DNA of 64,000 nucleotides from Candidatus Magasanikbacteria bacterium GW2011_GWA2_56_11 (GTDB lineage Bacteria > Patescibacteriota > Patescibacteriia > Magasanikbacterales > UBA922), in contig LCRX01000011.1 in the NCBI GenBank assembly GCA_001004885.1, positions 2,000 to 65,999 on the forward strand, in the 5' to 3' direction. The notes below the pieces were generated by a model that made no database searches, was not told the origin of the DNA, and saw only the letters and a program-made list of their open reading frames with translations. The stretch's first letter is position 1; every line of letters starts with the position of its first letter. Position numbers and translations under genes: made by a program. Below are positions 271 through 26,064 of the stretch, in pieces.

Positions 271-427
271 GAACTGACAGTGAGTTACTAACAATTCTGT
301 CCTAAGTTGAGCCGAAACATAGACTGATTTTTACGGCACCAATGTCTGAGCCTGTAAGAGCGAGTTTTGGTGCCGTAAAAATCAGTCTATGTTTGAGGCG
401 AAAAGGGGGAAACTCGCTATGAGTTCT
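271..427 (+). repeat. MITE-like repeat family 1, copy 1 (~157 bp; TIRs GAACTGAYAGTGAGTTA; internal ~30-bp-stem hairpin)
   Basis: Near-identical to 5964-6120, 25908-26064 and the reverse complement of 18971-19135. Perfect inverted repeat ccgaaacatagactgatttttacggcacc / ggtgccgtaaaaatcagtctatgttt. Confidence 0.8.
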
Positions 428-508
428 GTCTGCGCCCACTATACCAACGGTTGAGCCGTCTTGTCAAATCCTTGATTTTTTAGCTTAGTTAATGTATTTT
501 GCTGTTGT

Positions 509-1495
509 ATGTGGACAAGTATTTTGGGACAAAAAAACCGGCCGTTTCTGGCTCTCTCGCCGATGGCTGACATGACCGATTCGCCTTTTTGCCAGATAGT
601 GAGAAAAATTGGCGGCGCCGACGTGGTTTTTCGGGAAATGGTGTCGAGCGAGGCCATTGTGCGCGAAAATGTCAAAACTTTGGGAATGACAGATTTTGCC
701 GCTGCCGAGCGGCCTATAGTACAGCAGATATTCGGCTCCGACCCCGCCACCATGGCCCGGGCCGCGGCGCTTATCATGGAACACGCCGCTCCGGAAGGAA
801 TTGACATCAACATGGGGTGTCCGGTTTATAAGATTACCAGCCATTTCAACGGCTGCGCTCTTATGAAGGAGCCGGACCGGGCGGCGGCGATAATTCGCGC
901 GGTAAAGCACGCTGTCGGCCCCACGCCGTTGTCGGTAAAGATACGTCTGGGCTGGAGCGATCCGGACGAATTTAAAAAATTTATTCCCGTGATTGAAGCG
1001 GCCGGCGCGGATTTAATTGCGGTCCACGGCCGGACTAAGGCACAAGGGTACGGCGGGGCCAGCGACTGGCGGCGCATCGGCGAGGCCAAGGCTGTGGCGC
1101 GCGTGCCGGTGCTCGCGAACGGCGATATTCACCGGCCCGAACAAGTGGCGGCCGCTTTGGAGGCGACTGGCGCCGACGGCGTTTTGATCGCGCGCGGCGC
1201 TCTCGGCAACCCGTGGTTTTTTTGGGCAGTGGCGCATCCGGGAGCCAGGATTTCGCTGGGGGAGCGCGCGTCTGTAGTGCTCGAACACTCCCGGCTGCAT
1301 ATGGCGCGCTATGGCGAGCGTGGCCTCGTAACCTTTCGCAAGCATCTGGCGTGGTACTTCAAGGCCAGCCGCGTCGGAGAGGATGTGCCCGGCTTAAAGC
1401 AAATCCGCGCCGAGCTGGTGCGGGTGAGCACTTACGACGGTCTGGCGGAAATTTTGCGTCCGTTTAGCGCCAGACCCCCTCAGCCGGATAGTTAG
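509..1495 (+). CDS. dus: tRNA-dihydrouridine synthase (Dus family)
   Basis: TIM-barrel Dus hallmarks (…NMGCPV…, FMN-binding pattern); 328 aa. Confidence 0.85.
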   Translation: MWTSILGQKNRPFLALSPMADMTDSPFCQIVRKIGGADVVFREMVSSEAIVRENVKTLGMTDFAAAERPIVQQIFGSDPATMARAAALIMEHAAPEGIDINMGCPVYKITSHFNGCALMKEPDRAAAIIRAVKHAVGPTPLSVKIRLGWSDPDEFKKFIPVIEAAGADLIAVHGRTKAQGYGGASDWRRIGEAKAVARVPVLANGDIHRPEQVAAALEATGADGVLIARGALGNPWFFWAVAHPGARISLGERASVVLEHSRLHMARYGERGLVTFRKHLAWYFKASRVGEDVPGLKQIRAELVRVSTYDGLAEILRPFSARPPQPDS

Positions 1496-1639
1496 TGCGC
1501 TCTCCAAGGCCGTCTTCAGGTTCCTGGATATCGAGCTCGATCGGCTTGTTTTTCTCCGCCGGCGTGTCTGCCGACTGCCGTTTTTGGTACTCGCCGAGCG
1601 GTGTTTTTTCCCAAGCATCCGGTTTTTTGGTTTCCATAG

Positions 1640-2356
1640 TTAGGAGGTGGCTGGCGGTCGCCGTGAAAATTTAAGTTTGTACATAACAGTAAAGAATTCC
1701 CAAATGTCTTTTTTGCTCAGCTTGGACCGCCCGCGGCGCCGGTCATTGAACACCACCGGCACTTCGATGATGCTGAAGCCGGCCTGCTCGGCCCGGTAGA
1801 GCAGCTCTTCCTGGAAAGCGTAGCCGTTGCTTTTGACGGTATCCAGGGCGATAGACTTGAGAGCCTGGCTCCGGAAACAGCGGAAACCGGCGGTAACGTC
1901 GCGCACCCGGAGTCCTAAGAGCAGACGGGAAAAGAACATGGCGCCGGCGCTGGAGAGCCGTCGCCACAGGCTCCAGCCGACGATTTTACCGCCCAGAATT
2001 TTGCGCGAGCCAATGGCTAAATCGTGGTCGGCCGCGGCCGAGAGGAGACGGGGCAAATCGGCCGGATCATGGGAAAAATCCGCGTCCATTTCAAAAATAT
2101 AATCGGCGCCGAGGGCCAGGGCTTTCTTAAAGCCCGCAATATAGGCCGAGCCGAGGCCGAGTTTGCGCAGCCGCTTGACCAGGTGCACCGGATAGTCGGC
2201 GCGCATGCCCTCTACCACTTCGGCCGTTTTGTCCGGCGAGTTGTCGTCGACCACGACTATCTCGAGCTCGGGGATGCGGAGCGCGAAGATTTGGGACACC
2301 AGGGTGGCGATGTTGTCGCGTTCGTTATAGGTAGGGATGACGATAATCGGCTTCAT
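1640..2356 (-). CDS. GT2 glycosyltransferase, polyprenol/dolichol-phosphate mannosyltransferase-like
   Basis: N-terminal IVIPTYNE…VVDDNSPD and DAD motifs typical of Dpm1-like GT2 enzymes. Confidence 0.8.
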   Translation of the reverse strand: MKPIIVIPTYNERDNIATLVSQIFALRIPELEIVVVDDNSPDKTAEVVEGMRADYPVHLVKRLRKLGLGSAYIAGFKKALALGADYIFEMDADFSHDPADLPRLLSAAADHDLAIGSRKILGGKIVGWSLWRRLSSAGAMFFSRLLLGLRVRDVTAGFRCFRSQALKSIALDTVKSNGYAFQEELLYRAEQAGFSIIEVPVVFNDRRRGRSKLSKKDIWEFFTVMYKLKFSRRPPATS

Positions 2357-3207
2357 AGCGCCAGGCTTGACCGCCTTTCGGCCAGGATAACGGTATTGGC
2401 CAAAAGCCGGGCGACTGTAATCGGGCCGATGCCGCCCGGGGTCGGCGTTACATAGGCAGCTTTGAGGCGCACCTCGTTTACGTTGACGTCGCCAAACATT
2501 TTTTTCCCCACATAGTCAACCCCGGCGTCAATAACCACGGCGGACGGACTCACCATGTCGCCGCGGATCAGGTCTTTTTGGCCCACGCCGCTCACGATGA
2601 CGTCGGCGTGGAGGCATTTTTGCCGGATGTCCCGGCTGGCGCTGTTGACGGTGGTAACGCTGGCGCGCGCGTTCATCATCATGATCGCGAGCGGCCTGCC
2701 GACCAAGGCGCCGGTGCCGACGATGGTAACATTTTTCCCTGCTAGGCTAAGGCCCAGGTTTTCGAGTATAGACATAACCGCTCCCGGCGTGGGGGGAACA
2801 ATAATTTGGTCGTTCATGACCAGCTTGCCCAGATTGGCATGGGTGAGACAGTCCACGTCTACCTCCGGCAGAACCGCGTTCAATACTTCGGCCGTATAGA
2901 GCGGTTCTGGCAAGGGTAGCTGGACGACAAGGCCAGAGAGGGCCGGATCGGACTGAATTTCGTTTATGCGCTCGATGATCGCGGCGCGCCGGGTGTCTGC
3001 CGGCAGAGGGTGCAAAGCAAAATCTATCCCGATTTTTTTGGCCGCCAGGCCTTTGTGTTTGACATAAGCGGCCGATGGGGCTGATTCACCGACCAAAATA
3101 ACCGCCAGCTTGGGCACCAGGCCGCGGACTTTGAGAGCGGCTACTTTCTGCGCCGTCTCGGCGTGGATTTTTTCGGCGATTGCCCGGCCATTGATGAGGT
3201 TTGACAT
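2353..3207 (-). CDS. folD: bifunctional methylenetetrahydrofolate dehydrogenase/cyclohydrolase
   Basis: 284 aa; FolD-like N-terminus (LINGRAIAEKI…) and Rossmann GxGxxVG region. 4-nt overlap with the upstream glycosyltransferase gene. Confidence 0.9.
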   Translation of the reverse strand: MSNLINGRAIAEKIHAETAQKVAALKVRGLVPKLAVILVGESAPSAAYVKHKGLAAKKIGIDFALHPLPADTRRAAIIERINEIQSDPALSGLVVQLPLPEPLYTAEVLNAVLPEVDVDCLTHANLGKLVMNDQIIVPPTPGAVMSILENLGLSLAGKNVTIVGTGALVGRPLAIMMMNARASVTTVNSASRDIRQKCLHADVIVSGVGQKDLIRGDMVSPSAVVIDAGVDYVGKKMFGDVNVNEVRLKAAYVTPTPGGIGPITVARLLANTVILAERRSSLAL

Positions 3208-3246
3208 GCCGCTATAATAGCAAGCCAGGGTCCAAAATTCAAGTAC

Positions 3247-3274
3247 TTGCGGAGAGCGAAAAAAGTGTTAATAT
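3247..3274 (+). promoter_or_regulatory. candidate sigma70-like promoter for greA (TTGCGG-16-TAATAT), near-leaderless
   Basis: Hexamer spacing read directly; the -10 ends 6 nt before the greA ATG. Divergent region between folD and greA. Confidence 0.3.
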
Positions 3275-3280
3275 ACCTGC

Positions 3281-3784
3281 ATGCGGACGCTTAACCGAAA
3301 AGCGGAGAAAAACCGCCCAGTCAAGCCTGACGCTATCCTGACCGAGAGCAAGTTTTTGGAACTTAAGCGCCAGCTCGAGAAACTCAAAAACGCGAGCCGG
3401 CCGCAGGCAGCGTCCGAAGTCCGGCGGCTGGCTGAAATGGGGGATTTTTCGGAAAATTATGCCTACCAGATCGCCAAGGGACGGCTGCGGGGCATAAACA
3501 ACACCATTCTCAGGCTGGAACACGAGCTCCAACAGGCGACTATTATCGCGCCGCCGGCACAGACTGATACGGTGCAAGTGGGCCACGCCGTTACTGTCGA
3601 ATGCGGCGGACAAATGAAAATTTATCGAATACTGGGGTCAGCGGAGATTGACCTCGAAAAGGGGATTATTTCGCGCCACTCTCCGCTTGGGTCCGCCCTT
3701 TTGGGGCATAGAGTCGGAGAAACAATCAAGCTTAAGCTCGGGGAGAGGGAAGTTGAATACCGGGTAAAGAAAATTGAATCCTAG
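3281..3784 (+). CDS. greA: transcription elongation factor GreA
   Basis: 167 aa; N-terminal coiled-coil plus C-terminal FKBP-like domain with conserved acidic tip residues. Confidence 0.9.
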   Translation: MRTLNRKAEKNRPVKPDAILTESKFLELKRQLEKLKNASRPQAASEVRRLAEMGDFSENYAYQIAKGRLRGINNTILRLEHELQQATIIAPPAQTDTVQVGHAVTVECGGQMKIYRILGSAEIDLEKGIISRHSPLGSALLGHRVGETIKLKLGEREVEYRVKKIES

Positions 3785-3829
3785 CCAGGTCTTATCGCAG
3801 GCGGGCAGAAATTTTCGAGCGGGTCGTTG

Positions 3830-4561
3830 TTAGTTGGAACTTGGCGTATAACTGTCCGAAACGACCGCCCCGTCTTTCATGGCTATTATCCGGCTGGTTT
3901 GTTCCGCGTATTCCTGTTCGTGGGTAACCATAATAATCGTTTGGCCGGAACGGTGCAGTTCGGCGAATGTCTCGATCACGTGCCGTGCGTTTTGGGAGTC
4001 CAGGTTGGCCGTCGGCTCGTCGGCAAACAAGATGCGCGGATTGTGGGCGATAGCCCGCGCGATGGAAACGCGCTGTTGCTGGCCGCCCGACAGCTGGCTT
4101 GGCCGGTTATTTTTTTTGCCCTCGAGTCCCACTCTGGCCAGCGATTGCAGCGCCTGCCGCCGGGCGCTGCCGAGCCCCATGCCCTGCATAAGCATAGGCA
4201 GGGCGACATTGTCTATGGTGGAGAGCTCGGGCAAAAGGGCGTAGTCCTGAAACACGTACCCGAAATCTCGCAGGCGGATTTGGGTTTTTTCCGCCTCGTT
4301 GAGCTCGGAAGTATTGTGGCCGTTTACGATCACTTCTCCGGCTGTCGGCCGATCCAAAAGAGAGAGCTGGTAAAGCAGCGTGGATTTGCCGGCCCCCGAC
4401 GGGCCGACTACGGCCACGAATTCTCTGTCTTTGATTTCTATATTCAGGCTTTTGAGGGCCACGACCTGGAGTTCGCCTTGGCCGTATTTTTTTTCCAGTC
4501 CTTTGGCCTGTATCATACTTTGATCAATTAACTCTCCACCGCCGGCCTTGATGTTTGGCAC
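3830..4561 (-). CDS. ABC transporter ATP-binding protein (MacB/LolD family)
   Basis: Walker A GPSGAGKST, ABC signature LSGGQQQRV, Walker B ILFADEP. The true start is probably the MIQAKG… methionine ~45 nt inside the ORF. Confidence 0.85.
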   Translation of the reverse strand: MPNIKAGGGELIDQSMIQAKGLEKKYGQGELQVVALKSLNIEIKDREFVAVVGPSGAGKSTLLYQLSLLDRPTAGEVIVNGHNTSELNEAEKTQIRLRDFGYVFQDYALLPELSTIDNVALPMLMQGMGLGSARRQALQSLARVGLEGKKNNRPSQLSGGQQQRVSIARAIAHNPRILFADEPTANLDSQNARHVIETFAELHRSGQTIIMVTHEQEYAEQTSRIIAMKDGAVVSDSYTPSSN

Positions 4562-4607
4562 GCCGCTATGTCCGCCTCGGCGTAATTAAAAGGTGTCTGC
4601 CCGGCAG

Positions 4608-5903
4608 CTAGCGCCCGAGGATCGCGTCCAAGGTATTGCGGCGGACAATCAGCTTGGCCGGAATGTAGCCGGCAAACAATGTAACCACCACCAGGATAAT
4701 CACACGGACCGCGGCCCCGTCGGGCGTGGCTACCAAAATGCCGTCGGAAAAGGGGAAATTTATCGGATGGGCGTTGAAATAAGGTTTTAAGACGCCAAAT
4801 GTCAGGATTAGTCCCAGAAATGATCCGGACAAACCGTAAAACAGCGCCTGCAGCACATAAGAAAACTGGATGGCTTGCGGGCTGATGCCGATACCTTTCA
4901 TGATGCCGATAAATTTCCGTTTGGTAACGGCGTTGATGAAGATGACTATGAAAATGGTAATAGAGGCCACGACAAGCGCGATGGAGGAGAGGGCGTTGCC
5001 CAGAATGCCCATGGTAGTTTCAATATCGCGCAAAAAGGACGGTATGGCCTGGTCGGTGGTCTGGATCAGCGCGGCGTGCGAGCCCATAAATTCTTTGAGC
5101 TCGGAAACTAGGGCCGGCGCCCGGGCGTAGTCGCTTCTCACGGCTATCTCCTGGAATTGCTCCTGGTTGATCGGAAGCATCCGTTTGAGCTCCTTGTCGG
5201 TGATAAAAATCCGGGCCGACACCTCGTCTATTTTGCTTTTCAGAACGCCCTTGACCGTAAAATCTTTTCGGACCACGGCCCCGTCCGTGAGCGTGATCGT
5301 CAGCCGCACCCGGCTGCCGACGTCGACGTCTTTCAACAAATCCAGTCCTGGTATGTTGGCGTCGGCGAAAGACGAGTACTTCTTGAGCAGGTTGGCGCCG
5401 ATGAGAATGTAGCCTTCCTGGTCGGGGCGCAGGTTTTCGCCGTAGGCCACGAAACGGGAGAAGCGGGTCAGCGCTTCTTCGCGTCCCGGGTCTATGCCTA
5501 CCAGCCGGGCGCCGATGCGGTTGGGGCGCTCGTTTTTTTCCGGCAGGTCGCTGAGAGTCCCCAAAATTTGCGCGCTGGTGGAGTGCCGGGGAGAGACGGT
5601 AGATACCCCGGGATGGTTTTCCAGGTATGAGATCAGGGGCGCCGAGTTTTCGACGTAGCTGCGTCCGGGGGCCGGGGTGATGATGACTTCTCCGGAATAG
5701 CCTTCGCGGAATTGCTGGAAAGACCCGGCGATGAGGCCCACCAGAAGCCCGGAAACCACGACCAGGTTGAGAAAGGTGAGGACCATGATGAAAATAATGA
5801 GGCTGGTGGTGCCTTTGCCGGCGTGCCTGATTTGCCGATAGGCCAAAAACCAGCCGACCCGCAGGGCATTTTTGTACTCTTTGATTTTTTCACTGGCGGA
5901 CAT
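4608..5903 (-). CDS. ABC transporter permease, FtsX/MacB-like with large extracytoplasmic domain
   Basis: N-terminal TM helix, large loop and C-terminal FtsX 3-TM bundle. Start set at MSASEK (5903) because upstream ORF codons run into MITE copy 2. Confidence 0.8.
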   Translation of the reverse strand: MSASEKIKEYKNALRVGWFLAYRQIRHAGKGTTSLIIFIMVLTFLNLVVVSGLLVGLIAGSFQQFREGYSGEVIITPAPGRSYVENSAPLISYLENHPGVSTVSPRHSTSAQILGTLSDLPEKNERPNRIGARLVGIDPGREEALTRFSRFVAYGENLRPDQEGYILIGANLLKKYSSFADANIPGLDLLKDVDVGSRVRLTITLTDGAVVRKDFTVKGVLKSKIDEVSARIFITDKELKRMLPINQEQFQEIAVRSDYARAPALVSELKEFMGSHAALIQTTDQAIPSFLRDIETTMGILGNALSSIALVVASITIFIVIFINAVTKRKFIGIMKGIGISPQAIQFSYVLQALFYGLSGSFLGLILTFGVLKPYFNAHPINFPFSDGILVATPDGAAVRVIILVVVTLFAGYIPAKLIVRRNTLDAILGR

Positions 5904-5963
5904 GGTATGTTTTGTCAGGATAAGCTTAGCGCGCCGTGCCAATCGTATTCGGTCATTAACTAT

Positions 5964-6120
5964 GAACTGATAGTGAGTTATTAGCAATTCTCTTCTCTAA
6001 GTTGAGCCGAAACATAGACTGATTTTCGCGGCACCAATGTCTGAGCCTGTAAGAGCGAGTTTTGGGGCCGCGAAAATCAGTCTATGTTGAGGCGAAAGGG
6101 GGGAGACTCGCTGTGGGTTC
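5964..6120 (+). repeat. MITE-like repeat family 1, copy 2
   Basis: Same element as 271-427. Stem variant ttttcgcggc / gccgcgaaaa instead of tttttacggc / gccgtaaaaa. Confidence 0.8.
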
Positions 6121-6141
6121 TTTGGCTTACATGTTACTGGT

Positions 6142-6789
6142 TTAGACGCGACTGGTCAACCAGTCTTTGCCGCCTGCCACGTAGCCGGCGATGCCCGCAA
6201 TTGTACACGCCGGGATTTGGTGCCGGCGGGCGAAGTCCTTGAGTGCCGCCCCCCGTAACATGACTCCGTCAGAGCCCATTATTTCGCAAATTACTGCCGC
6301 TTCGGGCAGTCCGGCGAGTCTGGTTAGGGCAACTCCGGCCTCGGTATGGCCGAGCCGGTCGGCGAGTCCGCCCGGACGGGTGCGCAAAGGAAAGACGTGC
6401 CCGGGCCGGGTAAAATCTTCTGGCCGGGAGACGGGATCGATGAGCGCCTGGATCGTTCGCGTCCGGTCAAAGGCGGAGATACCGGTGGTCGTGGCGCGAT
6501 GGTCCACCGACAGCATCCAGGCGGTGCCGAACGGATCGTCCGGCGCTGCGGTCATCGGAGGAATTTCCAGGGCGTCGAGATAACGGCCTTCCAGGGCGAC
6601 GCAAACCAGGCCGCCGCCGGAATGCGCCAGGAAACTTACCGCCGCCGGCGTAACGCGGGATGCGGCGACCACCAGATCGGCTTCGGATTCGCGTTTGGGA
6701 TCATCGTCAAAAACTATTACCATCCGGCCGGAGGCTATCGCCGAGATGATGTCGGGAATGGGAGTATAGCTCATTTGTTTGAAATACAA
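6142..6789 (-). CDS. ribB: 3,4-dihydroxy-2-butanone 4-phosphate synthase
   Basis: 215 aa; RibB core motifs (…RESEADLV…, …HTEA…). Confidence 0.85.
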   Translation of the reverse strand: MYFKQMSYTPIPDIISAIASGRMVIVFDDDPKRESEADLVVAASRVTPAAVSFLAHSGGGLVCVALEGRYLDALEIPPMTAAPDDPFGTAWMLSVDHRATTTGISAFDRTRTIQALIDPVSRPEDFTRPGHVFPLRTRPGGLADRLGHTEAGVALTRLAGLPEAAVICEIMGSDGVMLRGAALKDFARRHQIPACTIAGIAGYVAGGKDWLTSRV

Positions 6790-6998
6790 CTGGGTGCGGC
6801 CGGAGGCGGCGCGCTTGTGTATTTTGGCTTAGTTGGCATAATTTAGGTTATCGCTAATCTTGATTTAAATCAAGTTGAAACTTGGATTCGATAAACTAAG
6901 CGTTTGGCTTGCTTCGTCCTTGTTGGTTCGGGACTAATGAGGTATCTTGGATCATCCGCCGCCTGCTTTTTTGAGTTGAATCTTACCGTCTTGGATAT

Positions 6999-7030
6999 AA
7001 AAATAATGGCTAATTTTAGCCATTATTTTC
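6999..7030. terminator. perfect 14-bp-stem hairpin (aaaataatggctaa / ttagccattatttt), likely terminator of the AT-rich islet operon
   Basis: Inverted repeat read directly; sits 3' of the 7086-7871 minus-strand gene. Confidence 0.4.
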
Positions 7031-7085
7031 GAGCTCGCATACAGGGACAGCTTCCGAATGTTTATTCAATATAATCTACTGTAAT

Positions 7086-7871
7086 CTATATAGGTTTTTT
7101 AACAATTTTTTCTGCTTGTTGGATAGCGCTCACAACCAATTCAGATGTTGTCCCTCCAAGATGGTAATCGGCATTCTTTAACACATCGTTAGTCATAACT
7201 AATAAATACATCAATGATAATCGATAAGTCTGCGCTTCGTTTTGTTTAGTCATACTTATAGCCAATAATTTACCATGTGACTCTTCCGCTAATCCTTTAT
7301 AATGAAAATACCATTGTTCTCCTCCGTTAATCTTAGAATTTTTACAAAGAGACCACATCGTTGGAAAAGGGTCTAATTCTTTTTCTTTAATAGTATTTAT
7401 GTCTGGAAATTTACCTTGAGAAAATTTATCATAATATTTTTTAAATTCCAAAGTAGCTAATTTTTCATTATTAGCTTTTTCATTATCGTAGTGTCGTTTA
7501 CATATTCTTAAGCATTCTTTTGTGGCTATTTCTTCCTGCACATCATTTTTTTGCCGAGTAAAGTACTCTAATCTGAACGTATTCTCCATGACTGTTCTTG
7601 CTGGGTAAAATGCAAATCTACGATTTTTTCCTTTTCCCAAAGAAACCGCAAAATCAACATTTTCCCAAATACTCTTTATCGTTTCATATAGATACATGTG
7701 TTTTAAAGTATCAGGGTTCTCTTTTTTGATATATTGATCAATTAGTTTAAGTTGTTCATATGCAACAGCTCTTGTAATTTTGAACGCTTTTTCAACCCGT
7801 GTCTTCCGTTGCTGTTCTGTAAGTTTACTTATCCAAAAATCTGAAAATTCATTTTGAGATAGTTGTATCAT
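7086..7871 (-). CDS. hypothetical protein (261 aa), AT-rich islet gene 2
   Basis: Strong coding asymmetry in AT-rich DNA; no recognisable family. Confidence 0.6.
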   Translation of the reverse strand: MIQLSQNEFSDFWISKLTEQQRKTRVEKAFKITRAVAYEQLKLIDQYIKKENPDTLKHMYLYETIKSIWENVDFAVSLGKGKNRRFAFYPARTVMENTFRLEYFTRQKNDVQEEIATKECLRICKRHYDNEKANNEKLATLEFKKYYDKFSQGKFPDINTIKEKELDPFPTMWSLCKNSKINGGEQWYFHYKGLAEESHGKLLAISMTKQNEAQTYRLSLMYLLVMTNDVLKNADYHLGGTTSELVVSAIQQAEKIVKKPI

Positions 7872-7882
7872 ATTTTAATGAT

Positions 7883-9058
7883 CTATATTGTTAACTTTGC
7901 TACCAAAAGTGTTACTATGTTATTCATCGATTCTATAACTAACCCTATTGTCTTTTCGTCTCTTAACACAAAACCTTTGTGTGCGTAGTTACACCGTTTT
8001 TCATACAAACGATTGAACCAAGGAAGTAAATCTGGTTTAATAGCATTAATACCTCCTATTATATATTTTTTATTATCCGATCTGATATCCTTATCTGGAA
8101 CGAATAAATGTTCTAAACAACAATATAATAATAAAATTTTAGCACCTAAATCTGGTATTTGTGAGGCCGAACTTAAAATATCTATAGTAGGTGCAACATC
8201 GTTCATGTTGTTATGTTTCCAAGGGTTTTTTAAACTTTCAAATATTTTTTTATTATCAAGCATAAATTTTTCTATTCCGCCAAACGTCCTATTATCAAGC
8301 CACATTTTAGAAAGTCCTCGATACCCAAAAGAAAGAAAAAGACATCCATCAGGTATTTTAACCCACGATTCTTTCGAGTCTTCTTCCCAACAGTAGCAAC
8401 CCTGTGAATTTTCACCCAAAAACACAGAGCTTGTTGGTGCCGTAAGCGGTACTTCATTTTGTCCAAAATCCATTTGACAATGATATACAAAGCTGGCAAT
8501 TCTCAGCATGTTCAAGAATATTCTCATGTGTGATGCAGAATACCAATAGCAATATGTTTCTGATCCAAAACTACTAAAACCAAAGGATGGGGAACAAAAA
8601 AATCTTTTTGCATCACTTTGTTCATATTTTTTAAGCCCAGGTTGCAGTTGTTTGTATTTTTTCAATAGTTCGTCGTTATCAAAAAACGGTACAAGTGGTA
8701 TATCCATTTTTTTAAATAATCCATCAAAAAATTCCTGTGGACCAACATCAGTAGAAGGATTAATAACAGGAGTGCTAAAATGACTAATTTCTGTTATTAA
8801 TACTCTCTGCTTAATAGTTTGTTCTGCTAAATCAAAATATTTATTTATCACAGATTCAATCACATCTGTTTTTGACGCCCATCTAAAAATAAAAGAAATC
8901 TCGTGAGCACTAGAATGTCCTCCGACACGCTGATAATATTCATCTTCTGAATTGACAGCAAAAAACAACTTACATTTAAATAAGCCCCGTACGACATCCA
9001 TTGGTAATATTTTTAACTTCTTTTCTTCAAAAAAGTTCACATTCTTTAAAAAGCACAC
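7883..9058 (-). CDS. hypothetical protein (391 aa) with C-terminal Rx4H (RCNYAH) HEPN-like motif, AT-rich islet gene 1
   Basis: Long ORF in low-GC DNA. C-terminal …LYEKRCNYAHKG… fits the HEPN Rx4-6H signature. The true start may be the internal M at ~9001. Confidence 0.55.
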   Translation of the reverse strand: MCFLKNVNFFEEKKLKILPMDVVRGLFKCKLFFAVNSEDEYYQRVGGHSSAHEISFIFRWASKTDVIESVINKYFDLAEQTIKQRVLITEISHFSTPVINPSTDVGPQEFFDGLFKKMDIPLVPFFDNDELLKKYKQLQPGLKKYEQSDAKRFFCSPSFGFSSFGSETYCYWYSASHMRIFLNMLRIASFVYHCQMDFGQNEVPLTAPTSSVFLGENSQGCYCWEEDSKESWVKIPDGCLFLSFGYRGLSKMWLDNRTFGGIEKFMLDNKKIFESLKNPWKHNNMNDVAPTIDILSSASQIPDLGAKILLLYCCLEHLFVPDKDIRSDNKKYIIGGINAIKPDLLPWFNRLYEKRCNYAHKGFVLRDEKTIGLVIESMNNIVTLLVAKLTI

Positions 9059-9212
9059 TTATAAGATGTCTTGGCTGATAGTATTTTTCTTGTCTATACT
9101 GATCTTTTAAGGGCATCTGCATAGCCAAAGCCACCTCTTTGTCAGCTTCACTTTCTAATTTGGAATATACTTGATCACCAATTATTTCTTTTATTTTATT
9201 TAAAAAATTCAT
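9027..9212 (-). CDS. small hypothetical protein (61 aa)
   Basis: ORF overlapping the annotated start of the 391-aa gene; coding status uncertain. Confidence 0.25.
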   Translation of the reverse strand: MNFLNKIKEIIGDQVYSKLESEADKEVALAMQMPLKDQYRQEKYYQPRHLISVLFKECELF

Positions 9213-9217
9213 AGTTT

Positions 9218-9379
9218 TTATTTATCCATTTTCTCCCTATAATCAATTTTAGATAAAACATCAAAAGCCTCAACCAAATCATCAGCACACTTCTGCGCAT
9301 CCTCAAAACTTAATTTAACGCCGGTTTTCTTTTCATATATATCCTGAAATTCTAGGACGAGTTCGTCGGAAGGAGGCAT
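9218..9379 (-). CDS. small acidic hypothetical protein (53 aa; MPPSDELVLEFQDIYEKK…), below the ORF-track size cutoff
   Basis: Hand-translated; in-frame stop 6 codons upstream of the ATG. Lies between tRNA-Gln and the islet genes. Confidence 0.3.
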   Translation of the reverse strand: MPPSDELVLEFQDIYEKKTGVKLSFEDAQKCADDLVEAFDVLSKIDYREKMDK

Positions 9380-9579
9380 ATTATTGAAGTTAATGACTAA
9401 TCCCAGTTTACTCTAAAGCCAGATCTAGTTCAATAAGTTCGAATCCTACTGAGAGTGGTGGTTAGTGCATTGCATTTTTAGCCAAAAATTTATAGTGTAA
9501 AAACCACTTCCGAACCGATTGTTTCTTCTCTCAACTAAAAAGAAAAACAGACTATTTTTAGTCTGTTTTCTAAATCGAG

Positions 9580-9650
9580 CTCGGGGCCAGGGATTCGAAC
9601 CCCGATAGGCAGAGCCAGAATCTGCAGTCCTACCATTAGACGAGCCCCGA
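9580..9650 (-). tRNA. tRNA-Gln (anticodon CTG)
   Basis: Cloverleaf folded by hand: acceptor TCGGGGC/GCCCCGA, D-stem GTCT/GGAC, anticodon stem GCAGA/TCTGC with loop TTCTGGC, T-arm CGGGG-TTCGAAT-CCCTG; 71 nt. G37 is atypical. Confidence 0.75.
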
Positions 9651-9802
9651 TTGTATCCGCCGCAGTCCGCCCGTTTGTACAGCGCTTAACATTATTTTTA
9701 TTTTGGTGATAAGCGCTTTGCCTGCCTGCGTCCATACGGACTTAGGCGGCAGGCGGGGGTGGATTGCTTTGTCTTTGTGACCTCACCGTAAATTTTACGC
9801 CG

Positions 9803-10795
9803 CTACTGGTTGATAATATAGCTTTCCTCGAAATCCTTTAGAAATCTTTCGCTCACGACTTTTACGTCCTGCCAGCGCCAGCGGTGGCTCAGAAAAACTT
9901 CCTCATTGAGAATAGCGTGGCGGCCGCCGTTCTCGATCAGATAAACCGTAGGCGCGGTTTTCGTTTTTATTAGCGAATCGTTACCCAGCCGTTTTTCGTT
10001 GAGAACGGGCGAGTAGCCTTCCTTAACCTCGGTTCCGTCCGTGAAGCCGTCGCGATCCGTGTCTTTGTCCCAGAGCTTGGTGCCATAGGAGAGCTCCTCG
10101 GATTTGCTAAGACCGTCATTGTCGCCATCCGTAAACCGGGAGTCGCTGACAGCGGGCGAGGTGAAGACCGCTACCGGCTGCCCGGTGCTGGTCTTGCCCT
10201 CGGGCACAAAATCATGCAGGGCGCTGAGCATTGTAGCATAAGGGTAGCGATAGTCAAGTCCGCGGTTAATTCCCGGTTCGTTGGTGACAAATTCCTGGCG
10301 GTCGTCGTCGTAGCCTTTGATAACCACGGTGTGATAGTCCGGGCCGCCGTTTTTGAAGTAGGGGTTTTTGAGCGCTTTGCCGTGGACCAAGGCAATCACC
10401 GGGCGGCCTTTGTCCATTTCCGCCTTAATCTGGTCCAGGGTCGGCCGGCTCACTGAGTAGGCCTCCCAGGAGTAGAAATTATTGATGATTTCGGCGATCT
10501 GGGCCGCATTGGTGTCTTTGCTAAAGCCGAGTTTGGTGTCCTCAAGATAGATAACATGCTTGATGCGGTTGACGGCTTCGTTTTTTCCGATTGTTTTTTG
10601 CCGCCCGCCGCGGTAATAAGAATCCACCATGACGGTCGCCGCCTCTTCGCAGGCGTCTTCCCAGGGTTGTTTCCAGACTCCTTGCGGGGCCTGCGACGTG
10701 TAGGGTACGTCCAGGGTGTTCGCGGCCGCGGCCGCCGGCAAGGGAACTACGCCGGAGAGAAAGGCCGTGATCAGGGCCAGGGCTTGGTAAAACAT
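9803..10795 (-). CDS. secreted protein with C39-like peptidase domain and Asp-rich TSP3-like Ca-binding repeats
   Basis: N-terminal signal peptide; …HTVVIKGYDDD… papain/C39-like region; DGDNDGLSKSEE…DKDTDRDGFTDGTE repeats. Confidence 0.55.
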   Translation of the reverse strand: MFYQALALITAFLSGVVPLPAAAAANTLDVPYTSQAPQGVWKQPWEDACEEAATVMVDSYYRGGRQKTIGKNEAVNRIKHVIYLEDTKLGFSKDTNAAQIAEIINNFYSWEAYSVSRPTLDQIKAEMDKGRPVIALVHGKALKNPYFKNGGPDYHTVVIKGYDDDRQEFVTNEPGINRGLDYRYPYATMLSALHDFVPEGKTSTGQPVAVFTSPAVSDSRFTDGDNDGLSKSEELSYGTKLWDKDTDRDGFTDGTEVKEGYSPVLNEKRLGNDSLIKTKTAPTVYLIENGGRHAILNEEVFLSHRWRWQDVKVVSERFLKDFEESYIINQ

Positions 10796-10807
10796 AGGTT
10801 TTGCGAG

Positions 10808-12385: not shown

Positions 12386-12394
12386 AAAGCGTAG

Positions 12395-13561: not shown

Positions 13562-13595
13562 ATGTATGGCGGGAAATTATTTTTGGGAGTAGGTT

Positions 13596-14327
13596 CTAGG
13601 CTGGTACGTCGGATATGGCTTCATCGGTCCGGGCATGCTCCTCGATATGGAATTTTTTATCAACCATAATTTTTATGGCGATGAATATGGCCATGAATAC
13701 CGAGTGTAAAATTGATTTCAAAAAAGGCGGTTGGCCGCTCAGGAGCAGAGTGAGGCTGAATCCCGCCAGTCCGACGGTGGTAACGCCGATCAAAATCGTA
13801 AAGTGCAGAATAATAATCCGTTTGTAGGGCGCGAACATCAGGGAGATAAAATCCCGGCGCTTGTACTCGCCGCCCTCGATAAAATTTTGCTGGTATGACA
13901 GGCCGTGGCTCACGAGAAAACCTACCGCCACTGCCAGCAATCCCAGCCGGTCGGCCCAGGAATTACTCTCCATGGCCAGCGCGCCAATTAGCGCGGGCAG
14001 AGCTTGAAAGAGGAAAAACCAGTAGACAAACAGGAATCCGCTGAAATGCAGGATAAAGAAAGCGGTGGCGAACACTCGCGTCTGGGTAGCGCGCGCCGGC
14101 ACCGAGTCCGGCCGGCCAGCGCCGTTTTCCGACGGCAAGTCGGGAACAGCCTCGGCGCGCAGCATCTTCAAGACCGTGTAAAATCCGATTACCGCGGTCT
14201 CCCACCAGTAGGCGTAGAGGAGTGCCAGTACGTTCCAGCGCAGGAGAACCACTCCCAAGAGGGGTATAAGATTGGCGTATACCAGTGTCCGCGCACTTTT
14301 TAAACGGCGAGTTCCGGCTGGAGTCAC
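13596..14327 (-). CDS. polytopic membrane protein (243 aa, ~6-7 TM)
   Basis: Multiple hydrophobic helices; lies immediately downstream of the VirB4-like ATPase. Confidence 0.6.
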   Translation of the reverse strand: MTPAGTRRLKSARTLVYANLIPLLGVVLLRWNVLALLYAYWWETAVIGFYTVLKMLRAEAVPDLPSENGAGRPDSVPARATQTRVFATAFFILHFSGFLFVYWFFLFQALPALIGALAMESNSWADRLGLLAVAVGFLVSHGLSYQQNFIEGGEYKRRDFISLMFAPYKRIIILHFTILIGVTTVGLAGFSLTLLLSGQPPFLKSILHSVFMAIFIAIKIMVDKKFHIEEHARTDEAISDVPA

Positions 14328-14348
14328 ACGGCGGCAGTGATAAGTAAA

Positions 14349-16814: not shown

Positions 16815-17416
16815 TTTTTTGACTTTCGCTTGAGCGCCATTATTTGGTCGGCCTTTATCTTCGCCTCCTGCTCCAGAAAAAGCCGGTTGACCCCGGGCAG
16901 TATCCGCAGCCAGCTGACGAGCAGTTTAAAAATTTTTTTGATTTTAACGTGGGCCTGTTTGAGCAGAGCCCGGATCTCCCAGGCTGTCTGTTCTCCCTTT
17001 ATCTTGAATTCCTGCTGTTGAACAGGCGTGAGTACCCGGTAGGCGTCGGCCAGGCCGGCCTCCATGATATTTTCAATTTGCACTGTCAGCTCGTCGCGCA
17101 CAGCCGGGATGGCGGTCGGCTTGTTTTTCCGGCCGCGCAAACTTTGGCGCAGCCGGTTAATAGCCTCGTCCAAAAAATTATCCTTGCCGTCGGGCGGCTG
17201 GTCTGCCTGGCGTTTTTCCGATTGTTCGCCGTCGATCTGAGCCGCGGTTTCCGGCTGTGCCTCGGAGACCGGAGTTTTTTCCGGTCGGCGGTCGGCCGCG
17301 GCCGGTTCTGGGGCCGGATCGGGCGGCGTTTCGCGTGCGGCGTTCCCCAAGACCACGGGCGCTTCGGGCGGGGGCAGCGACCGTTCGGTGGACGGTAAAA
17401 AGGATGGCAAAGCCAT
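16811..17416 (-). CDS. hypothetical protein with Pro/Glu-rich N-terminus (201 aa)
   Basis: 4-nt overlap with the ATPase gene (operon); low-complexity N-terminal half; conserved-looking C-terminal helical domain. Confidence 0.5.
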   Translation of the reverse strand: MALPSFLPSTERSLPPPEAPVVLGNAARETPPDPAPEPAAADRRPEKTPVSEAQPETAAQIDGEQSEKRQADQPPDGKDNFLDEAINRLRQSLRGRKNKPTAIPAVRDELTVQIENIMEAGLADAYRVLTPVQQQEFKIKGEQTAWEIRALLKQAHVKIKKIFKLLVSWLRILPGVNRLFLEQEAKIKADQIMALKRKSKN

Positions 17417-17551
17417 ATAAAGCGTGTGTCGGGGGACCGCTAGAGGGCGGACGCAGGATTACGCAGAGTAGTATAGCAAAAAAAACTAAAATCCGGAATT
17501 GTTTCTGCTTGGCCGAAACCTATGACTTTGAATTCAGCCGCCGCGGTCGGG

Positions 17552-18940
17552 CTATTTAGCCTTTCGGACGGCTTGTCCTTCGCTGCCGTCCTCGACCAGA
17601 TAGCCGCTCGCGGCTATTTCGGCGCGCAGGCGGTCGCTTTCGTCCCAGTTTTTCCGGGCGCGGGCCGCGGCGCGCTGGTCGAGCAGCTTTTGCACCTCGG
17701 AGGGAATTATGGCCGGAGCTTCTTCTGGCTGGTGCAGGTCAAGGCCGAGCACCTTGTCGAAAGTAATGACAGTATTGAGAGTAATTTGTTTTTCTTTGAG
17801 CGCGCTCCAAAGGAGCGCCAGGGCCGCCGGCGTATTTAGATCGTCGTTCAGGGCGTCGAGCCAGTCGCGTTTTAGACTGGGGGGAGTCAGACTGTCGCGA
17901 GGGATGCGGCGCACTTCTCGGCGCAGGTTTTCGAGCCCGGTTTGCGCCGCCCTGAGCGCCTCCCAGCTAAAGCCGAGCTGTTTGCGGTAATGGGCTTGCA
18001 GCAGGAAATAGCGGTAACTGAGCGGGGAGAAGCCTTTTTCCTCGAGCGTGGCGAGCGTAATGAAGTTTTCTCCGGACTTGGCCATTTTGGTTTCGGCAAT
18101 ATTCAGAAATTCTCCGTGCAGCCAATAGCGCACCCATGGCTTGAGTCCGGTCGCCGCCTCGCTCTGGGCAATCTCGTTGGTGTGGTGCACCGCTATGTGG
18201 TCAACGCCGCCGCAGTGGATATCGAACTGCTCGCCTAGGTATTTCATGCTCATGGCCGAACATTCTATGTGCCAGCCAGGGAAGCCGGGGCGGCCGAAGG
18301 CCAGCCACTCCATCTGTCGTTTTTCTCCGGCCGGAGTGAATTTCCAGAGGGCAAAATCATGCAGGCGGCGTTTTTGCCCCATTTCCACGCGCGCGCCGGC
18401 TTTCAGGGATTGTTTTTGAAGCTGGGCCAGTTGGCCGTAACCGGGATCTTTGGCGGTATCGAAATAAATTCCGTCTTCGGTGGTATAGGTGTACCCTTTG
18501 TCAATAAGCGTCTGTACCAGGGCGATCTGCTCGGGTATGTGCTCGGTGGCGCGGCACCAGATATTGGGTTCTATGATATTGAGTTTTGCGATATCGCGCT
18601 GAAAAGCGAGGGTATAATACTCGGCGATATCCCAAGCCGATTTGCCTTCGCGCCGGGCGCCGGTTTCAATTTTGTCTTCGCCCGAGTCAGCGTCGTCGGT
18701 GAGATGCCCGACATCGGTAATATTCATGACATGCAGCACGTCGAGACCGTTGTGGCGCAGGGTTCTCTTTAGGACGTCTTCGAACACGTACGTGCGCAAA
18801 TTGCCGATATGCGCGTAATTGTACACGGTCGGCCCGCAGGTGTAGAGGCCGACATGGGAACCAGCCAGCGGCCGCAGGTCTTCAAGCGCGCGGGTGAGAG
18901 TATTGAAGAGTTTGAGCATAAGCAATAGTAAAAGCGCCAA
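17552..18940 (-). CDS. cysS: cysteine--tRNA ligase
   Basis: HIGN (HIGH-type) motif, KMAKS, and the zinc-site WHIECSAM…HHTNEIAQSEA region characteristic of CysRS. Confidence 0.9.
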   Translation of the reverse strand: MALLLLLMLKLFNTLTRALEDLRPLAGSHVGLYTCGPTVYNYAHIGNLRTYVFEDVLKRTLRHNGLDVLHVMNITDVGHLTDDADSGEDKIETGARREGKSAWDIAEYYTLAFQRDIAKLNIIEPNIWCRATEHIPEQIALVQTLIDKGYTYTTEDGIYFDTAKDPGYGQLAQLQKQSLKAGARVEMGQKRRLHDFALWKFTPAGEKRQMEWLAFGRPGFPGWHIECSAMSMKYLGEQFDIHCGGVDHIAVHHTNEIAQSEAATGLKPWVRYWLHGEFLNIAETKMAKSGENFITLATLEEKGFSPLSYRYFLLQAHYRKQLGFSWEALRAAQTGLENLRREVRRIPRDSLTPPSLKRDWLDALNDDLNTPAALALLWSALKEKQITLNTVITFDKVLGLDLHQPEEAPAIIPSEVQKLLDQRAAARARKNWDESDRLRAEIAASGYLVEDGSEGQAVRKAK

Positions 18941-18970
18941 TTGGGCGTCCCCTCCGCCAAACTATAATGG

Positions 18971-19135
18971 ACTCACAGCGAGCCCCCCCCCTTTTTCGCC
19001 GAAACATAGACTGATTTTCGCGGCCCCAAAACTCGCTCTTACAGGCTCAGACATTGGTGCCGTAAAAATCAGTCTCTGTTTCGGCTCAAGTTAGAGAATA
19101 GAATTGCTAATAACTCACTACCAGTCCAATTCAAT
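18971..19135 (-). repeat. MITE-like repeat family 1, copy 3 (inverted orientation)
   Basis: The reverse complement aligns end-to-end with copies 1, 2 and 4. Confidence 0.8.
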
Positions 19136-19299
19136 GAGAGAGCCGGGAACTGCTCACTGGCGTTAGGGGAGTATAGAAGAGTTATCCGCGGAGCGCAAGA
19201 CTTGCGTGTAGTCCCGCATTTCCGTATACTGTTTAGAACCCACCCCAGAATAACTCCTGGTTCTAAACTGGCTCATAATTATTTTTTGCGATCGCCTCT

Positions 19300-20043
19300 A
19301 TGGAATCAATCCCGGTTAAGCATCATCCCGACATCCGCTGGGTGGCGGCGGCGAGCGCCGTTATTACCGCCTTAGTGGCCGGCGGGATCATTTATTGGAA
19401 CAGCGCCATCGAAGTCCGCAACGAATTGGCGGCGGCGCGGGCCGAGAACGATGAGACGGTAGAAGGTCTGCGGGCGGAAATCGGCGGTTTGCGGCTGATT
19501 GTCGAGGGCATGAAACAAGAATTAACCGCCAAAAACGCCGGCCTCACCGCGCCCGCCGGACCAGTTACGTCTCAGGCGCTGTTTACGAGTAGACACGGTT
19601 TTTCGTTGCGCTATCCCCAGTCGTGGATCGTGGTCGACACGGCTAGCGAAGACTATGCCACCCTGGCCGAGGCGCAAAAGACTCTGGGTAATCACCTGGC
19701 ATTTTTGAGCTTTGTACCCCAATCGGCCCCGGTTGAGGGCGTGCCGGCTCACCAAGCCAAGCTCGAGCTGTGGGTGTACAGTACGCCGCCCCAAAAGGGC
19801 CTGGACGAGTGGATCGGCGCCAATCACGCGGCCAAGGATATACTGTCGGTGGCCGACCTCCAGGTCGGTCCGTTTGCGGGAAAGATGGTCGAGGCTGCGG
19901 CAGAACCAGAGGGCATCCGGGTGATTTATTTTCAGGCGCAAAGTCTTTGGGTGCAGGCAAACGTGTATCCGGAGAACACGGAGCGCCTGGAGGAAGTGAA
20001 GGCAATCCTGGCCGCCTTTGTCCCGGAAGCCGATAACCTTTGA
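19300..20043 (+). CDS. hypothetical membrane-anchored protein (247 aa)
   Basis: N-terminal TM helix, coiled-coil, then an extracytoplasmic domain. Confidence 0.6.
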   Translation: MESIPVKHHPDIRWVAAASAVITALVAGGIIYWNSAIEVRNELAAARAENDETVEGLRAEIGGLRLIVEGMKQELTAKNAGLTAPAGPVTSQALFTSRHGFSLRYPQSWIVVDTASEDYATLAEAQKTLGNHLAFLSFVPQSAPVEGVPAHQAKLELWVYSTPPQKGLDEWIGANHAAKDILSVADLQVGPFAGKMVEAAAEPEGIRVIYFQAQSLWVQANVYPENTERLEEVKAILAAFVPEADNL

Positions 20044-24713: not shown

Positions 24714-24718
24714 GCCTT

Positions 24719-25267
24719 ATGTCCAATCCCTTTCAGAAAGACTTGGCGGAAAATGAAATCGGCCGGCTGGCCGAGGACCAAAAAGCGGCCGTTAAGCGCA
24801 TGTTTAAGGCGCGCCGCCTTACAGGGTGGGGCATCGCGCTCCTTGACGGCCTGTTCGCTCTTCCCGCGGTGGCTTTGGCCCTGCGGGCGGTGGATGCGAT
24901 CAATTTTGCGGTCTTGGGCAGCGCGGCTTTGGCGTTGGTCGCGCTGGCGGCCTACGGAGCGGCCATGGTCTACACTAGCCGGGCAGCCGAGCGCTCGGCG
25001 CTCGCGGCCGAAGTAAAAACAGTGAGCGGCATCCCTCTTAAGTACGATTACACCGTGCCGATCAAGGTGCCCGGACCGTCCAACCTGCCCATTACGCATT
25101 TTCTGCGCCTCAAAAACGGCTGGCTCAAGATAGACGGCGTCTCTTACGGCGTCTTGCCCAGTTCGCTCTACCAGGAGATTTCCGGGGAAAAATCGGCGAC
25201 CTTCTATTACATACCGGCCGGCGGCGTTGGCTTCAAAAAACGGCTCATTGTCAATTTTCTTCCTTGA
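24719..25267 (+). CDS. hypothetical membrane protein (182 aa)
   Basis: Two TM helices; starts 5 nt after rpoD. Confidence 0.5.
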   Translation: MSNPFQKDLAENEIGRLAEDQKAAVKRMFKARRLTGWGIALLDGLFALPAVALALRAVDAINFAVLGSAALALVALAAYGAAMVYTSRAAERSALAAEVKTVSGIPLKYDYTVPIKVPGPSNLPITHFLRLKNGWLKIDGVSYGVLPSSLYQEISGEKSATFYYIPAGGVGFKKRLIVNFLP

Positions 25268-25298
25268 GCCGTTCGGATTAGCTTGTGTTGTCCGGCCG

Positions 25299-25880
25299 CT
25301 ACAACAGCCGGCTCGCCACCTCGGGCCAGTTTATTGCCCGGAAAAAAGCGGAGATGTAGTCTGCCCGCCTGATGCCGTAGTCGAGCATGTAAGCGTGCTC
25401 GAAGACGTCCATCACCAAAAGAGGACTCGTGCCGGCCAAGTGCCCGGCGTCGTGTTCGTTTATCCAGATATTGAACAGCCGGCCGCTTCTGGCATCATGG
25501 GCGAGCACCGCCCAGCCGATGCCGCGCATGGCGCCGACGGCCCGGAAGTCTTTTTCCCAGTTTTCGTGCGAGCCAAACTCAGAGGCGATTTTTTGGGCGA
25601 GGGGAGATGACATGTCGAGCGCCGCCGGTTCTTTCGTCATGTTATCGAAGTAGTACTCGTGCAGCCGCATGCCGTTGAATTCCCAGCCAAAGCGGCGGGT
25701 TAATTCCGCGTACTCCGGCGTGTCAGTTTTTCCGGCCTGGAGCATTTCGTCGAGGAGGGAATTAATTTTATTGGCATTCATGACGTATCCTTGGTAGAGG
25801 GTAAAATGATTTTTCAGCATCGTGTCGCTGAAGCCGGGCAGAGGCAACAGCTGGTCGAAGTTTTTTGGTTGGTAGTTCAT
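25299..25880 (-). CDS. sodA: Fe/Mn superoxide dismutase
   Basis: SOD motifs (…HH..YF…, DVWEHAYY-like WEHAYMLDY). Start set at MNYQPK because upstream ORF codons run into MITE copy 4. Confidence 0.9.
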   Translation of the reverse strand: MNYQPKNFDQLLPLPGFSDTMLKNHFTLYQGYVMNANKINSLLDEMLQAGKTDTPEYAELTRRFGWEFNGMRLHEYYFDNMTKEPAALDMSSPLAQKIASEFGSHENWEKDFRAVGAMRGIGWAVLAHDARSGRLFNIWINEHDAGHLAGTSPLLVMDVFEHAYMLDYGIRRADYISAFFRAINWPEVASRLL

Positions 25881-25907
25881 ATTTTTTATTATTTTTTGCG
25901 ACGGATT

Positions 25908-26064
25908 GGACTGATAGTGAGTTATCAGCAATTCTCTCCTAAGTTGAGCCGAAACATAGACTGATTTTCGCGGCACCAATGTCTGAGCCTGTAAGAGCGA
26001 GTTTTGGTGCCGCGAAAATCAGTCTATGTTTCGGCGAAAAAGGGGGAAACTTGCTATGAGTTCA
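25908..26064 (+). repeat. MITE-like repeat family 1, copy 4
   Basis: Perfect 30-bp stem with the cg/cg variant. Confidence 0.8.

Follow-up and report, generated by a model that had tools for sequence, protein, structure and literature searches.

Why should a short repeat in the genome of an uncultured bacterium lie, time after time, just behind a promoter and always the same way round with respect to the gene that follows? The question is raised by a 64,000-nucleotide stretch of Candidatus Magasanikbacteria bacterium GW2011_GWA2_56_11, a member of the Candidate Phyla Radiation (CPR) (contig LCRX01000011.1, positions 2,000 to 65,999; hereafter the window, numbered from its first letter), in which an intergenic element of ~156 bp recurs. 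We put at roughly 70% the probability that these repeats are a family of MITEs (miniature inverted-repeat transposable elements) whose copies lie one way round at the 5' extreme of transcription units and are co-transcribed with them as a structured leader.

The family comprises 13 full copies and two remnants, about 15 loci overall. We label copies in the window c1 to c5 and loci or contigs outside it with L-numbers; the strand given for a copy is the one read into RNA from the adjoining promoter. An earlier note on this DNA had reported four full copies in 26 kb, which we recovered with slightly shifted boundaries: c1 (271..426, minus strand, 156 nt), c2 (5964..6120, minus, 157 nt), c3 (18969..19127, plus, 159 nt; previously 18971-19135), and c4 (25908..26063, minus, 156 nt). 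These four are not the complete set for the window, as a truncated fifth copy, c5 (31905..31956, minus), retains 52 nt from the gene-proximal end of the element. At the c5 locus of a related strain (L037), at least positions 26-156 of the element model are present on a contig that starts inside the element; because this strain holds the rest of the element, c5 is, judged from the comparison, a deletion derivative of the fuller copy seen there. The second remnant, L022, is a partial copy. The density of the repeat, previously called unusual, is modest: five loci fall within 32 kb, but there are about 15 overall. Copies are 154-162 nt long, ~156 nt being typical, with nhmmer E-values of 1e-48 to 1e-54. 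End-to-end identity is 85-95% among copies at unlinked loci, and column identity averages 88% over 12 copies. A core 23-mer was observed six times versus 0.00 expected from shuffled sequence, and a terminal 16-mer five times versus 0.16. The element has no open reading frame (ORF) of its own, every frame being closed or lacking a start codon.

The ends of the element identify it as a probable transposon. Every full copy is bounded by 16-nt terminal inverted repeats (TIRs; GAACTSATAGYGAGTT) that are imperfect, as had been described; the left end reads GAACTGATAGTGAGTT, and the right end, in reverse complement, reads GAACTCATAGCGAGTT. To these can be added target-site duplications (TSDs). A perfect 3-bp TSD abuts the TIRs in 9 of the 13 full copies (TGT, ATT four times, AAT, GTG, CAT, and AGT; binomial P = 5e-13), two of three positions match in three further copies, and L019b is flanked by a 4-bp duplication, ATAA. 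Fifteen shifted registers used as controls gave 0-1 matches each. In the window, the duplications are TGT at 268-270 and 427-429 (c1), AAT at 18966-18968 and 19128-19130 (c3), and ATT at 25905-25907 and 26064-26066 (c4); c2 is flanked by the trinucleotides TAT and TTT, which match at two of three positions. Seven of the 13 duplicated sites fit A-N-T. Thus, the MITE-like identity first proposed from the TIRs now has TSDs as well, and the family is very probably a MITE, that is, a lineage-specific non-autonomous DNA transposon of ~156 bp. Short TIRs and a 3-bp TSD are shared with MITEs of the IS5 superfamily and of PIF-Harbinger (Tourist), although the TSD is not of the TNA/TWA type. Some IS5-family subgroups duplicate 3 bp. 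The 3-bp duplication is thus a loose lead to a parent in the IS5 superfamily; published work on the TSDs of IS5 subgroups did not decide the assignment.

The main feature of the family's distribution is its polarity. The copies had been described as lying in both orientations in an insertion-like manner, and they do occupy both chromosome strands; relative to the promoter and the downstream unit, however, there is a single orientation. Judged by the promoter, all 13 of 13 full copies conform; judged by the downstream gene, 12 of 12 do, and the two remnants conform as well. Wherever it could be assessed, the gene-facing end is the one farthest from the promoter, and 0-205 nt separate it from the start of the downstream gene. 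It is the gene, and not the chromosome strand, that orientation follows, given that c3 is inverted along with its gene and that the sign of the GC skew is constant across the window. In 11 of 13 copies, 10-13 nt separate the end of a sigma70-like -10 hexamer from the element; the other two are c3, where TATAAT directly abuts the element (0 nt), and L019b, which has TATAAC at 13 nt. In L037, the full c5 allele lies 22 nt from its -10 box. Hexamers resembling a -10 box show no fixed position at the other end of the element. The general layout is therefore a -35 box, a -10 box, 10-13 nt, the element, 0-205 nt, and then a start codon, a riboswitch, or a tRNA.

The predicted promoters are close to consensus. 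On the minus strand of the window they are TTGACA-18-TATAGT into c1 (438..467; -10 ending 11 nt before the element), TTGACC-17-TAACAT into c2 (6131..6159; 10 nt), TTGACT-18-TATACT into c4 (26076..26105; 12 nt), and TTGACA-17-TACCAT at c5 (31989..31961), where the truncated copy lies between promoter and tRNA. The TATAAT box at c3 is at 18963-18968 on the plus strand, and the TSD overlaps its last 3 nt. Outside the window we identified TTGCGA-17-TATTAT at L010, TTGGCT-17-TATACT at L023, and TTGACA-17-TACACT at L028, the last with 10 nt to the element. The -35 boxes at c1, c2, c4, and L028 match TTGACA at 5-6 of 6 positions. In a generic promoter scan the promoters of c1, c4, and c5 rank best or second-best over their stretches of the window, and that of c1 is the top-scoring promoter match within 1-20000. 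Some promoters overlap the preceding gene, as at c2 (the 3' end of ribB, 6142-6774), L007, and L028. We also considered a rightward -10 box with the TIR serving as -35, and dropped this candidate, as the reverse strand shows canonical TTGACA-N17/18-TATAAT promoters pointing into the element.

Because of the -10 spacing, the TSD would fall at about +1 to +5 of the predicted transcript and the element would be the first ~156 nt of the leader. The element is thus likely a transcribed leader module, forming the 5'-most part of the leader. Locus L028 illustrates the arrangement: promoter, 10 nt, the element flanked on either side by AAT, TTTTAAAGGAGGGAAAT, and ATG, so that the element follows the predicted start site and precedes a Shine-Dalgarno sequence of canonical form, AAGGAGG. 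At L012, the duplicated triplet is itself the start codon of an apparently leaderless gene.

The genes served are heterogeneous, and include sodA, an FtsX permease, B12 binding or uptake, a tRNA, PPDK, two epimerases, glycosyl and sugar transferases, FemAB, and hypothetical proteins; given this heterogeneity, one classical regulon is unlikely to lie behind them. The gene links proposed earlier were correct for c2, which precedes an FtsX-like permease (4608-5903, minus), and for c4, which lies 27 nt from sodA (25299-25880, minus). They were wrong for c3, which serves a hypothetical gene (19300-20043, plus) and not cysS, and for c1, which serves a leftward B12/DUF4430 unit and not dus. The unit downstream of c5 is a tRNA (31897..31825, minus). 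Directly 3' of c1 is a probable divergent adenosylcobalamin (AdoCbl) riboswitch (86..275, minus), a full-length but weak match that scores 24.5 bits, under the gathering score of 50. It is followed by a terminator-like hairpin (77..56, minus) and then by DUF4430 genes from about window position 45. Past the left edge of the window, L039:1655-5537 encodes two DUF4430 (transcobalamin C-terminal-like) proteins and a DUF6580 membrane protein. DUF4430 is the transcobalamin C-terminal domain (PMC4350170). From its match and its neighbors, the 86-275 segment is probably a divergent B12 riboswitch that controls B12 binding or uptake in a CPR bacterium. Since a riboswitch match and transcobalamin-domain genes follow c1, the direction of transcription there is fixed independently of the promoter prediction.

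Gene callers do extend N-termini through the element, as had been pointed out. Public calls start at a TTG inside it ('LLITHYQ'), which produces a 459-aa FtsX variant (window 4608-5987) and, in a related strain, a 210-aa SodA (window 25299-25979). As FtsX homologues are 430-433 aa and lack the N-terminal extension, the extension of FtsX is spurious. A role of the element as supplier of a new start codon and N-terminus, via an SD-like AGGAG plus TTG, was rejected because such a start is open and in frame in just 5 of 9 cases and because the FtsX homologues have no such extension. In several genes of this lineage a -10 box lies 6-9 nt from the start codon (window 29728-29765 and 3207-3242, and L040:9960-10003), for example TATAAT at 29751-29756 ahead of the ATG at 29765. 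The FtsX gene of the relative L040 also has a leaderless layout. From such spacings, leaderless or short-leader transcripts appear to be common in the lineage.

All four full copies in the window contain the central hairpin and ~24-nt loop noticed previously. The hairpins span 315..394 in c1 (arms 315-342 and 367-394 of 28 nt, 100% complementary), 6006..6093 in c2, 18998..19085 in c3, and 25948..26035 in c4; the last three have 32-nt arms that are 91%, 88%, and 100% complementary, respectively, and the loop is 24 nt in each. Whichever strand is folded, z-scores range from -8 to -14. For the transcribed orientation, a self-contained rod is the predicted RNA fold, and it stays self-contained when leaders are folded. 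In this rod the TIRs pair with each other, a C-tract (UUUCCCCCUUUU) forms a duplex with a purine tract (UUAGGAGAGAA), and the hairpin in the center closes the conserved loop. At L028 an alternative pairing is predicted between the C-tract and the Shine-Dalgarno sequence of the gene; this pairing is not general, given that several served genes have no Shine-Dalgarno sequence.

Variants in the hairpin stem had been taken as compensatory changes showing that the structure is maintained. We agree that a variable dinucleotide is complementary in c1 (TA/TA) and c4 (CG/CG) and mixed in c3, but c2, also described as mixed, is CG/CG and instead carries another mismatch (GGCACC/GGGGCC). Of 12 family members compared, six can pair at the dinucleotide and six cannot, the second position is mismatched in about half of the copies, and the RNAalifold covariation term is 0.01 kcal/mol. 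The argument from covariation is thus weak. Sequence comparison instead makes the stem variation look like mosaicism arising from exchange between copies and from inversion of the loop. The c3 locus in L031 and L033 has the same flanks with more than 15 internal differences and an inverted loop, and the diverged copy L019b also has an inverted loop; the overall ratio of loop orientations is 13:2. On scaffold L026 (ENA ANAN16-1 scaffold_44847, 2420-2700), a junction inside the element links the sodA-proximal half of c4 to the remaining half, with its flank, of the copy at L010. The new neighbor that sodA thereby acquires reflects either homologous recombination between MITE copies or an assembly chimera. 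Taken together, these cases show sequence exchange among copies and flipping of the loop through recombination between its arms.

Real compensatory changes were found only in comparison with a single diverged homologue, L021, a TIR-less hairpin at 880-1010 of its contig in the ychF-VIT intergenic region. It comes from a different organism, whose closest VIT homologue is from a Magasanikbacteria metagenome-assembled genome (MAG), and its start is 11 nt past a TATACT box. Several paired positions of the outer stem are different in L021, whereas the 21-nt loop core is identical. When L021 is added to the alignment, both partners change in 5 of 34 pairs and pairing is seen in 94% of cells, above shuffles, although this is one sequence and maintenance of a palindrome at the DNA level would predict the same result. 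A search for relatives of L021 via VIT homologues found an unrelated hairpin or nothing at this place in other Magasanikbacteria; the unrelated hairpin occupies, for example, L029:9870-9973 in a Magasanikbacteria MAG. At gathering thresholds, an Rfam search of the window returned only three tRNAs and no curated family for the element, and a relaxed E-value search returned merely sub-threshold hairpin models of miRNA precursors.

How widespread is the family? The check for further copies proposed in the earlier note yielded at least ten more loci in the same organism. A metagenome scan with a loop 18-mer recovered eight of these together with the diverged L021, nhmmer added L019b, and the open-frame peptide of the element had one match in a database of 5.8 billion proteins, which led to a new copy, L028. 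The sodA-linked copy is present in two JGI metagenomes and one ENA assembly, identical or with one single-nucleotide polymorphism, and other junctions between copy and flank recur in further independent ENA and Logan assemblies. All related strains examined share the same insertions. Among 185,579 species-representative genomes, a loop 20-mer had only a chance coding match in an Acidipila MAG. Two scans of viral contigs, with the loop 18-mer and with a gapped hairpin pattern, returned nothing relevant, and in 214 kb (the window plus related CPR loci) a covariance model built on the hairpin core picked up neither further members nor any that lack TIRs. In the nearest other species, identified by 77% amino acid identity of the FtsX permease, there is no element in the 16-18 kb sampled. 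On the basis of these searches, the family is restricted to the Candidatus Magasanikbacteria GW2011_GWA2_56_11 lineage. A full-text literature search that paired the MITE phrase with Candidate Phyla Radiation retrieved only an unrelated match.

In the account that we favor, the copies would have been mobilized in trans by a DDE-type transposase. The predicted promoters would be used, the copies would be co-transcribed as the 5'-most ~156 nt of the leader, and the leader RNA would fold by itself into a rod in vivo. The central hairpin of 28-32 bp could then act as a very stable 5'-proximal duplex that protects the 5' end or serves as an RNase III substrate. By analogy with the Correia elements of Neisseria, any consequence would most probably be post-transcriptional; a specific effect on mRNA stability or processing can be suggested tentatively, and we regard it as rather doubtful. 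The polarity would stem from either of two causes: purifying selection in a compact genome, in which the start of a leader is almost the sole tolerated site, or target choice by the transposition machinery. Selection could produce such polarity because the genome is compact, with promoters that overlap preceding genes and with many leaderless or short-leader genes.

Several points weigh against this account. The promoters are predicted, from consensus matches alone, and the sample is about 15 loci from one species-level population. About 170 kb of DNA from this organism yielded neither a solo TIR nor, in the ORFs checked, a transposase domain. Empty sites did not turn up among related strains (members of 90%-identity clusters of five flanking proteins), all of which carry the insertions or have contigs that break inside the element; TSDs, TIRs, and copy number therefore have to carry the case for mobility by themselves. 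A transposon with nearly symmetric TIRs is not expected to insert one way round, so the polarity needs selection or another mechanism. Finally, the loop is the best-conserved part of the element and is shared with L021, a hint that its sequence has a specific function, for which a passive MITE would not account.

The alternative that survives best is that the transposition machinery recognizes promoter-proximal DNA, such as the open complex or RNA polymerase with sigma, and inserts strand-specifically at about +1 to +5. In 11-12 of 13 copies the distance from the -10 box to the TSD is 7-10 nt, the spacing is constant even where 60-205 nt of leader remain downstream (c2, L017, L019a, and L019b), and the orientation of insertion goes with the gene and not with the chromosome strand, as c3 shows. 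Selection could nevertheless have filtered the insertions, as only fixed, old ones common to all related strains are seen, and neutral sites are few in a compact genome. In addition, c3 (0 nt, with a long leader) and the full c5 allele in L037 (22 nt) deviate from the spacing, and no transposase is known. We consider this mechanism unlikely, with perhaps one chance in a handful. Much the same standing is given to the broader proposal of strand-specific targeting of start sites by the element or its transposase and/or domestication of the element as a portable 5'-leader module, with the loop as binding site or switch. For targeting of start sites there is an analogy in the yeast Ty3 retrotransposon, which targets Pol III start sites.

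Could the repeats instead be a dedicated, non-mobile cis-regulatory leader RNA, with copies related by descent or convergence? Like such RNAs, the copies always take the same place and direction within 5' leaders and present a loop, their most conserved part, on a stem. The L021 hairpin, which has the loop and compensatory stem changes without TIRs and lies 11 nt past a -10 box, also fits. Unlike cis-regulatory leaders, however, the element has the footprints of transposition, with TSDs that abut TIRs and 85-95% end-to-end identity across unlinked loci, and it serves heterogeneous genes. Within-family covariation is close to zero, the loop is inverted in some copies and alleles, no Rfam family matches, and one copy sits upstream of a probable riboswitch. 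This explanation is weakened by the TSDs, survives only in the form of a domesticated MITE, and seems improbable.

Comparably improbable is a function at the DNA level, either as an operator or nucleoid-protein site spread by a MITE or as a phase-variation switch with an invertible loop. The position just after promoters is where repressors act, the loop sequence is conserved, and the loop is inverted between strains at the c3 locus and among copies. In addition, Correia elements carry IHF sites and can invert (PMC10969869). The 24-nt loop has neither dyad symmetry nor the promoter-like hexamers expected of an inverton, its orientations are unbalanced at 13:2, the associated genes are heterogeneous, and no recombinase or regulator gene is nearby.

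Movement of the hairpin as single-stranded DNA by a Y1 (HUH) transposase, as in REPIN/RAYT or IS200/IS605 systems, is very improbable. The element resembles REPINs in that these are abundant, intergenic, long hairpins made of two inverted arms; each arm of the element could fold alone (GCCGAAA...TTTCGCGGC), and the loop occurs in flip and flop orientations. REPINs are not known to have TIRs or TSDs, and the element has both, the 3-bp TSD setting it apart from the IS200/IS605 type as well. No Y1 transposase was seen in the sequence available, which makes this a partial test. An assembly or binning artefact, that is, duplicated or chimeric sequence, has next to no chance of being correct: contigs from related samples often break inside the element and L026 joins halves of two copies, but every copy has unique flanks and its own substitutions, and the same flanks occur in two JGI assemblies and several ENA and Logan assemblies, which rules out the concern about duplication raised earlier.

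Correia elements have a 26-bp TIR consensus and a TA duplication. Of the known families of bacterial repeats, these (CREE/NEMIS) are the closest in behavior to the element, being MITEs of ~100-155 bp with TIRs that lie mostly just upstream of genes. One of them lies just downstream of the mtrCDE promoter, and the hairpin that Correia TIRs form in the mRNA is cleaved by RNase III (PMC10969869, PMC2649163). Correia elements can be co-transcribed, and can invert and recombine (PMC2649163, PMC10969869). The element differs in its unrelated TIR sequence and 3-bp TSD, and in that its main duplex is a separate internal hairpin of 28-32 bp with a conserved loop. It also lacks evident outward promoters, lies one way round 10-13 nt after the -10 box, and has a CPR host. 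Like ERIC/IRU and RUP/BOX repeats, it is an intergenic palindromic repeat that is transcribed, here by prediction. For such repeats an orientation-dependent effect on mRNA level is reported, as in the case of ERIC and RNase E in Yersinia (PMC10969869). The element has no detectable sequence relationship to these repeats, and ERIC effects are described at 3' insertions, whereas copies of the element lie at the 5' extreme. We conclude that it is not a member of the Correia, ERIC, or REPIN families and behaves most like Correia/NEMIS. A review of prokaryotic MITEs nowhere mentions a distribution specific for orientation or transcription start (PMC10969869).

The distribution of the family is unusually clean, every copy lying one way round within a few nucleotides of a predicted transcription start. 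Reduced CPR genomes are usually viewed as poor in mobile DNA, and the family suggests that a MITE burst can persist in the reduced CPR genome of an uncultured groundwater bacterium. If selection accounts for the polarity, the extreme 5' end of the leader would be a safe insertion site in a compact genome, and the copies would provide a natural set of 5' hairpin leaders for the study of RNA stability and processing in CPR bacteria. Target choice, if that is the cause, would be a new kind of site selection by a bacterial transposon. As a leader module, the element could let an ultra-small CPR genome rewire many unrelated genes together. In practice, it breaks metagenome assemblies, can give chimeric scaffolds, and causes wrong N-terminal extensions.

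The window contains a second family of long hairpins, at 45656-45767 and 53141-53226. Conservation between the two copies is 90% over the inner stem (GTTTTTARCGGC) and the 38-nt loop, and this inner stem is similar to the one in the MITE (GATTTTYRCGGC). Each copy has an outer stem of its own sequence, self-complementary in both cases; the one at 45656-45767 is a perfect stem of 37 bp. The gap between gatC and gatA contains one copy, and the other is flanked by divergent genes; TIRs or TSDs are not evident.

Two regions of the window are compositional outliers in this 56% GC genome. The segment at ~6800-9800 has 36-44% GC, contains two ORFs without a Pfam match, and adjoins a tRNA (9580-9650). 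The segment at 58000-62000 has 68-69% GC and contains five ORFs without a Pfam match, followed by a Fic-domain gene (62132-63184). Lastly, the ORF at 54713-56122 contains a 90-nt internal duplication (55115-55204 and 55775-55864, 73% identity) in which a PGGFGT motif occurs twice, suggesting that its predicted product is a tandem-domain protein.

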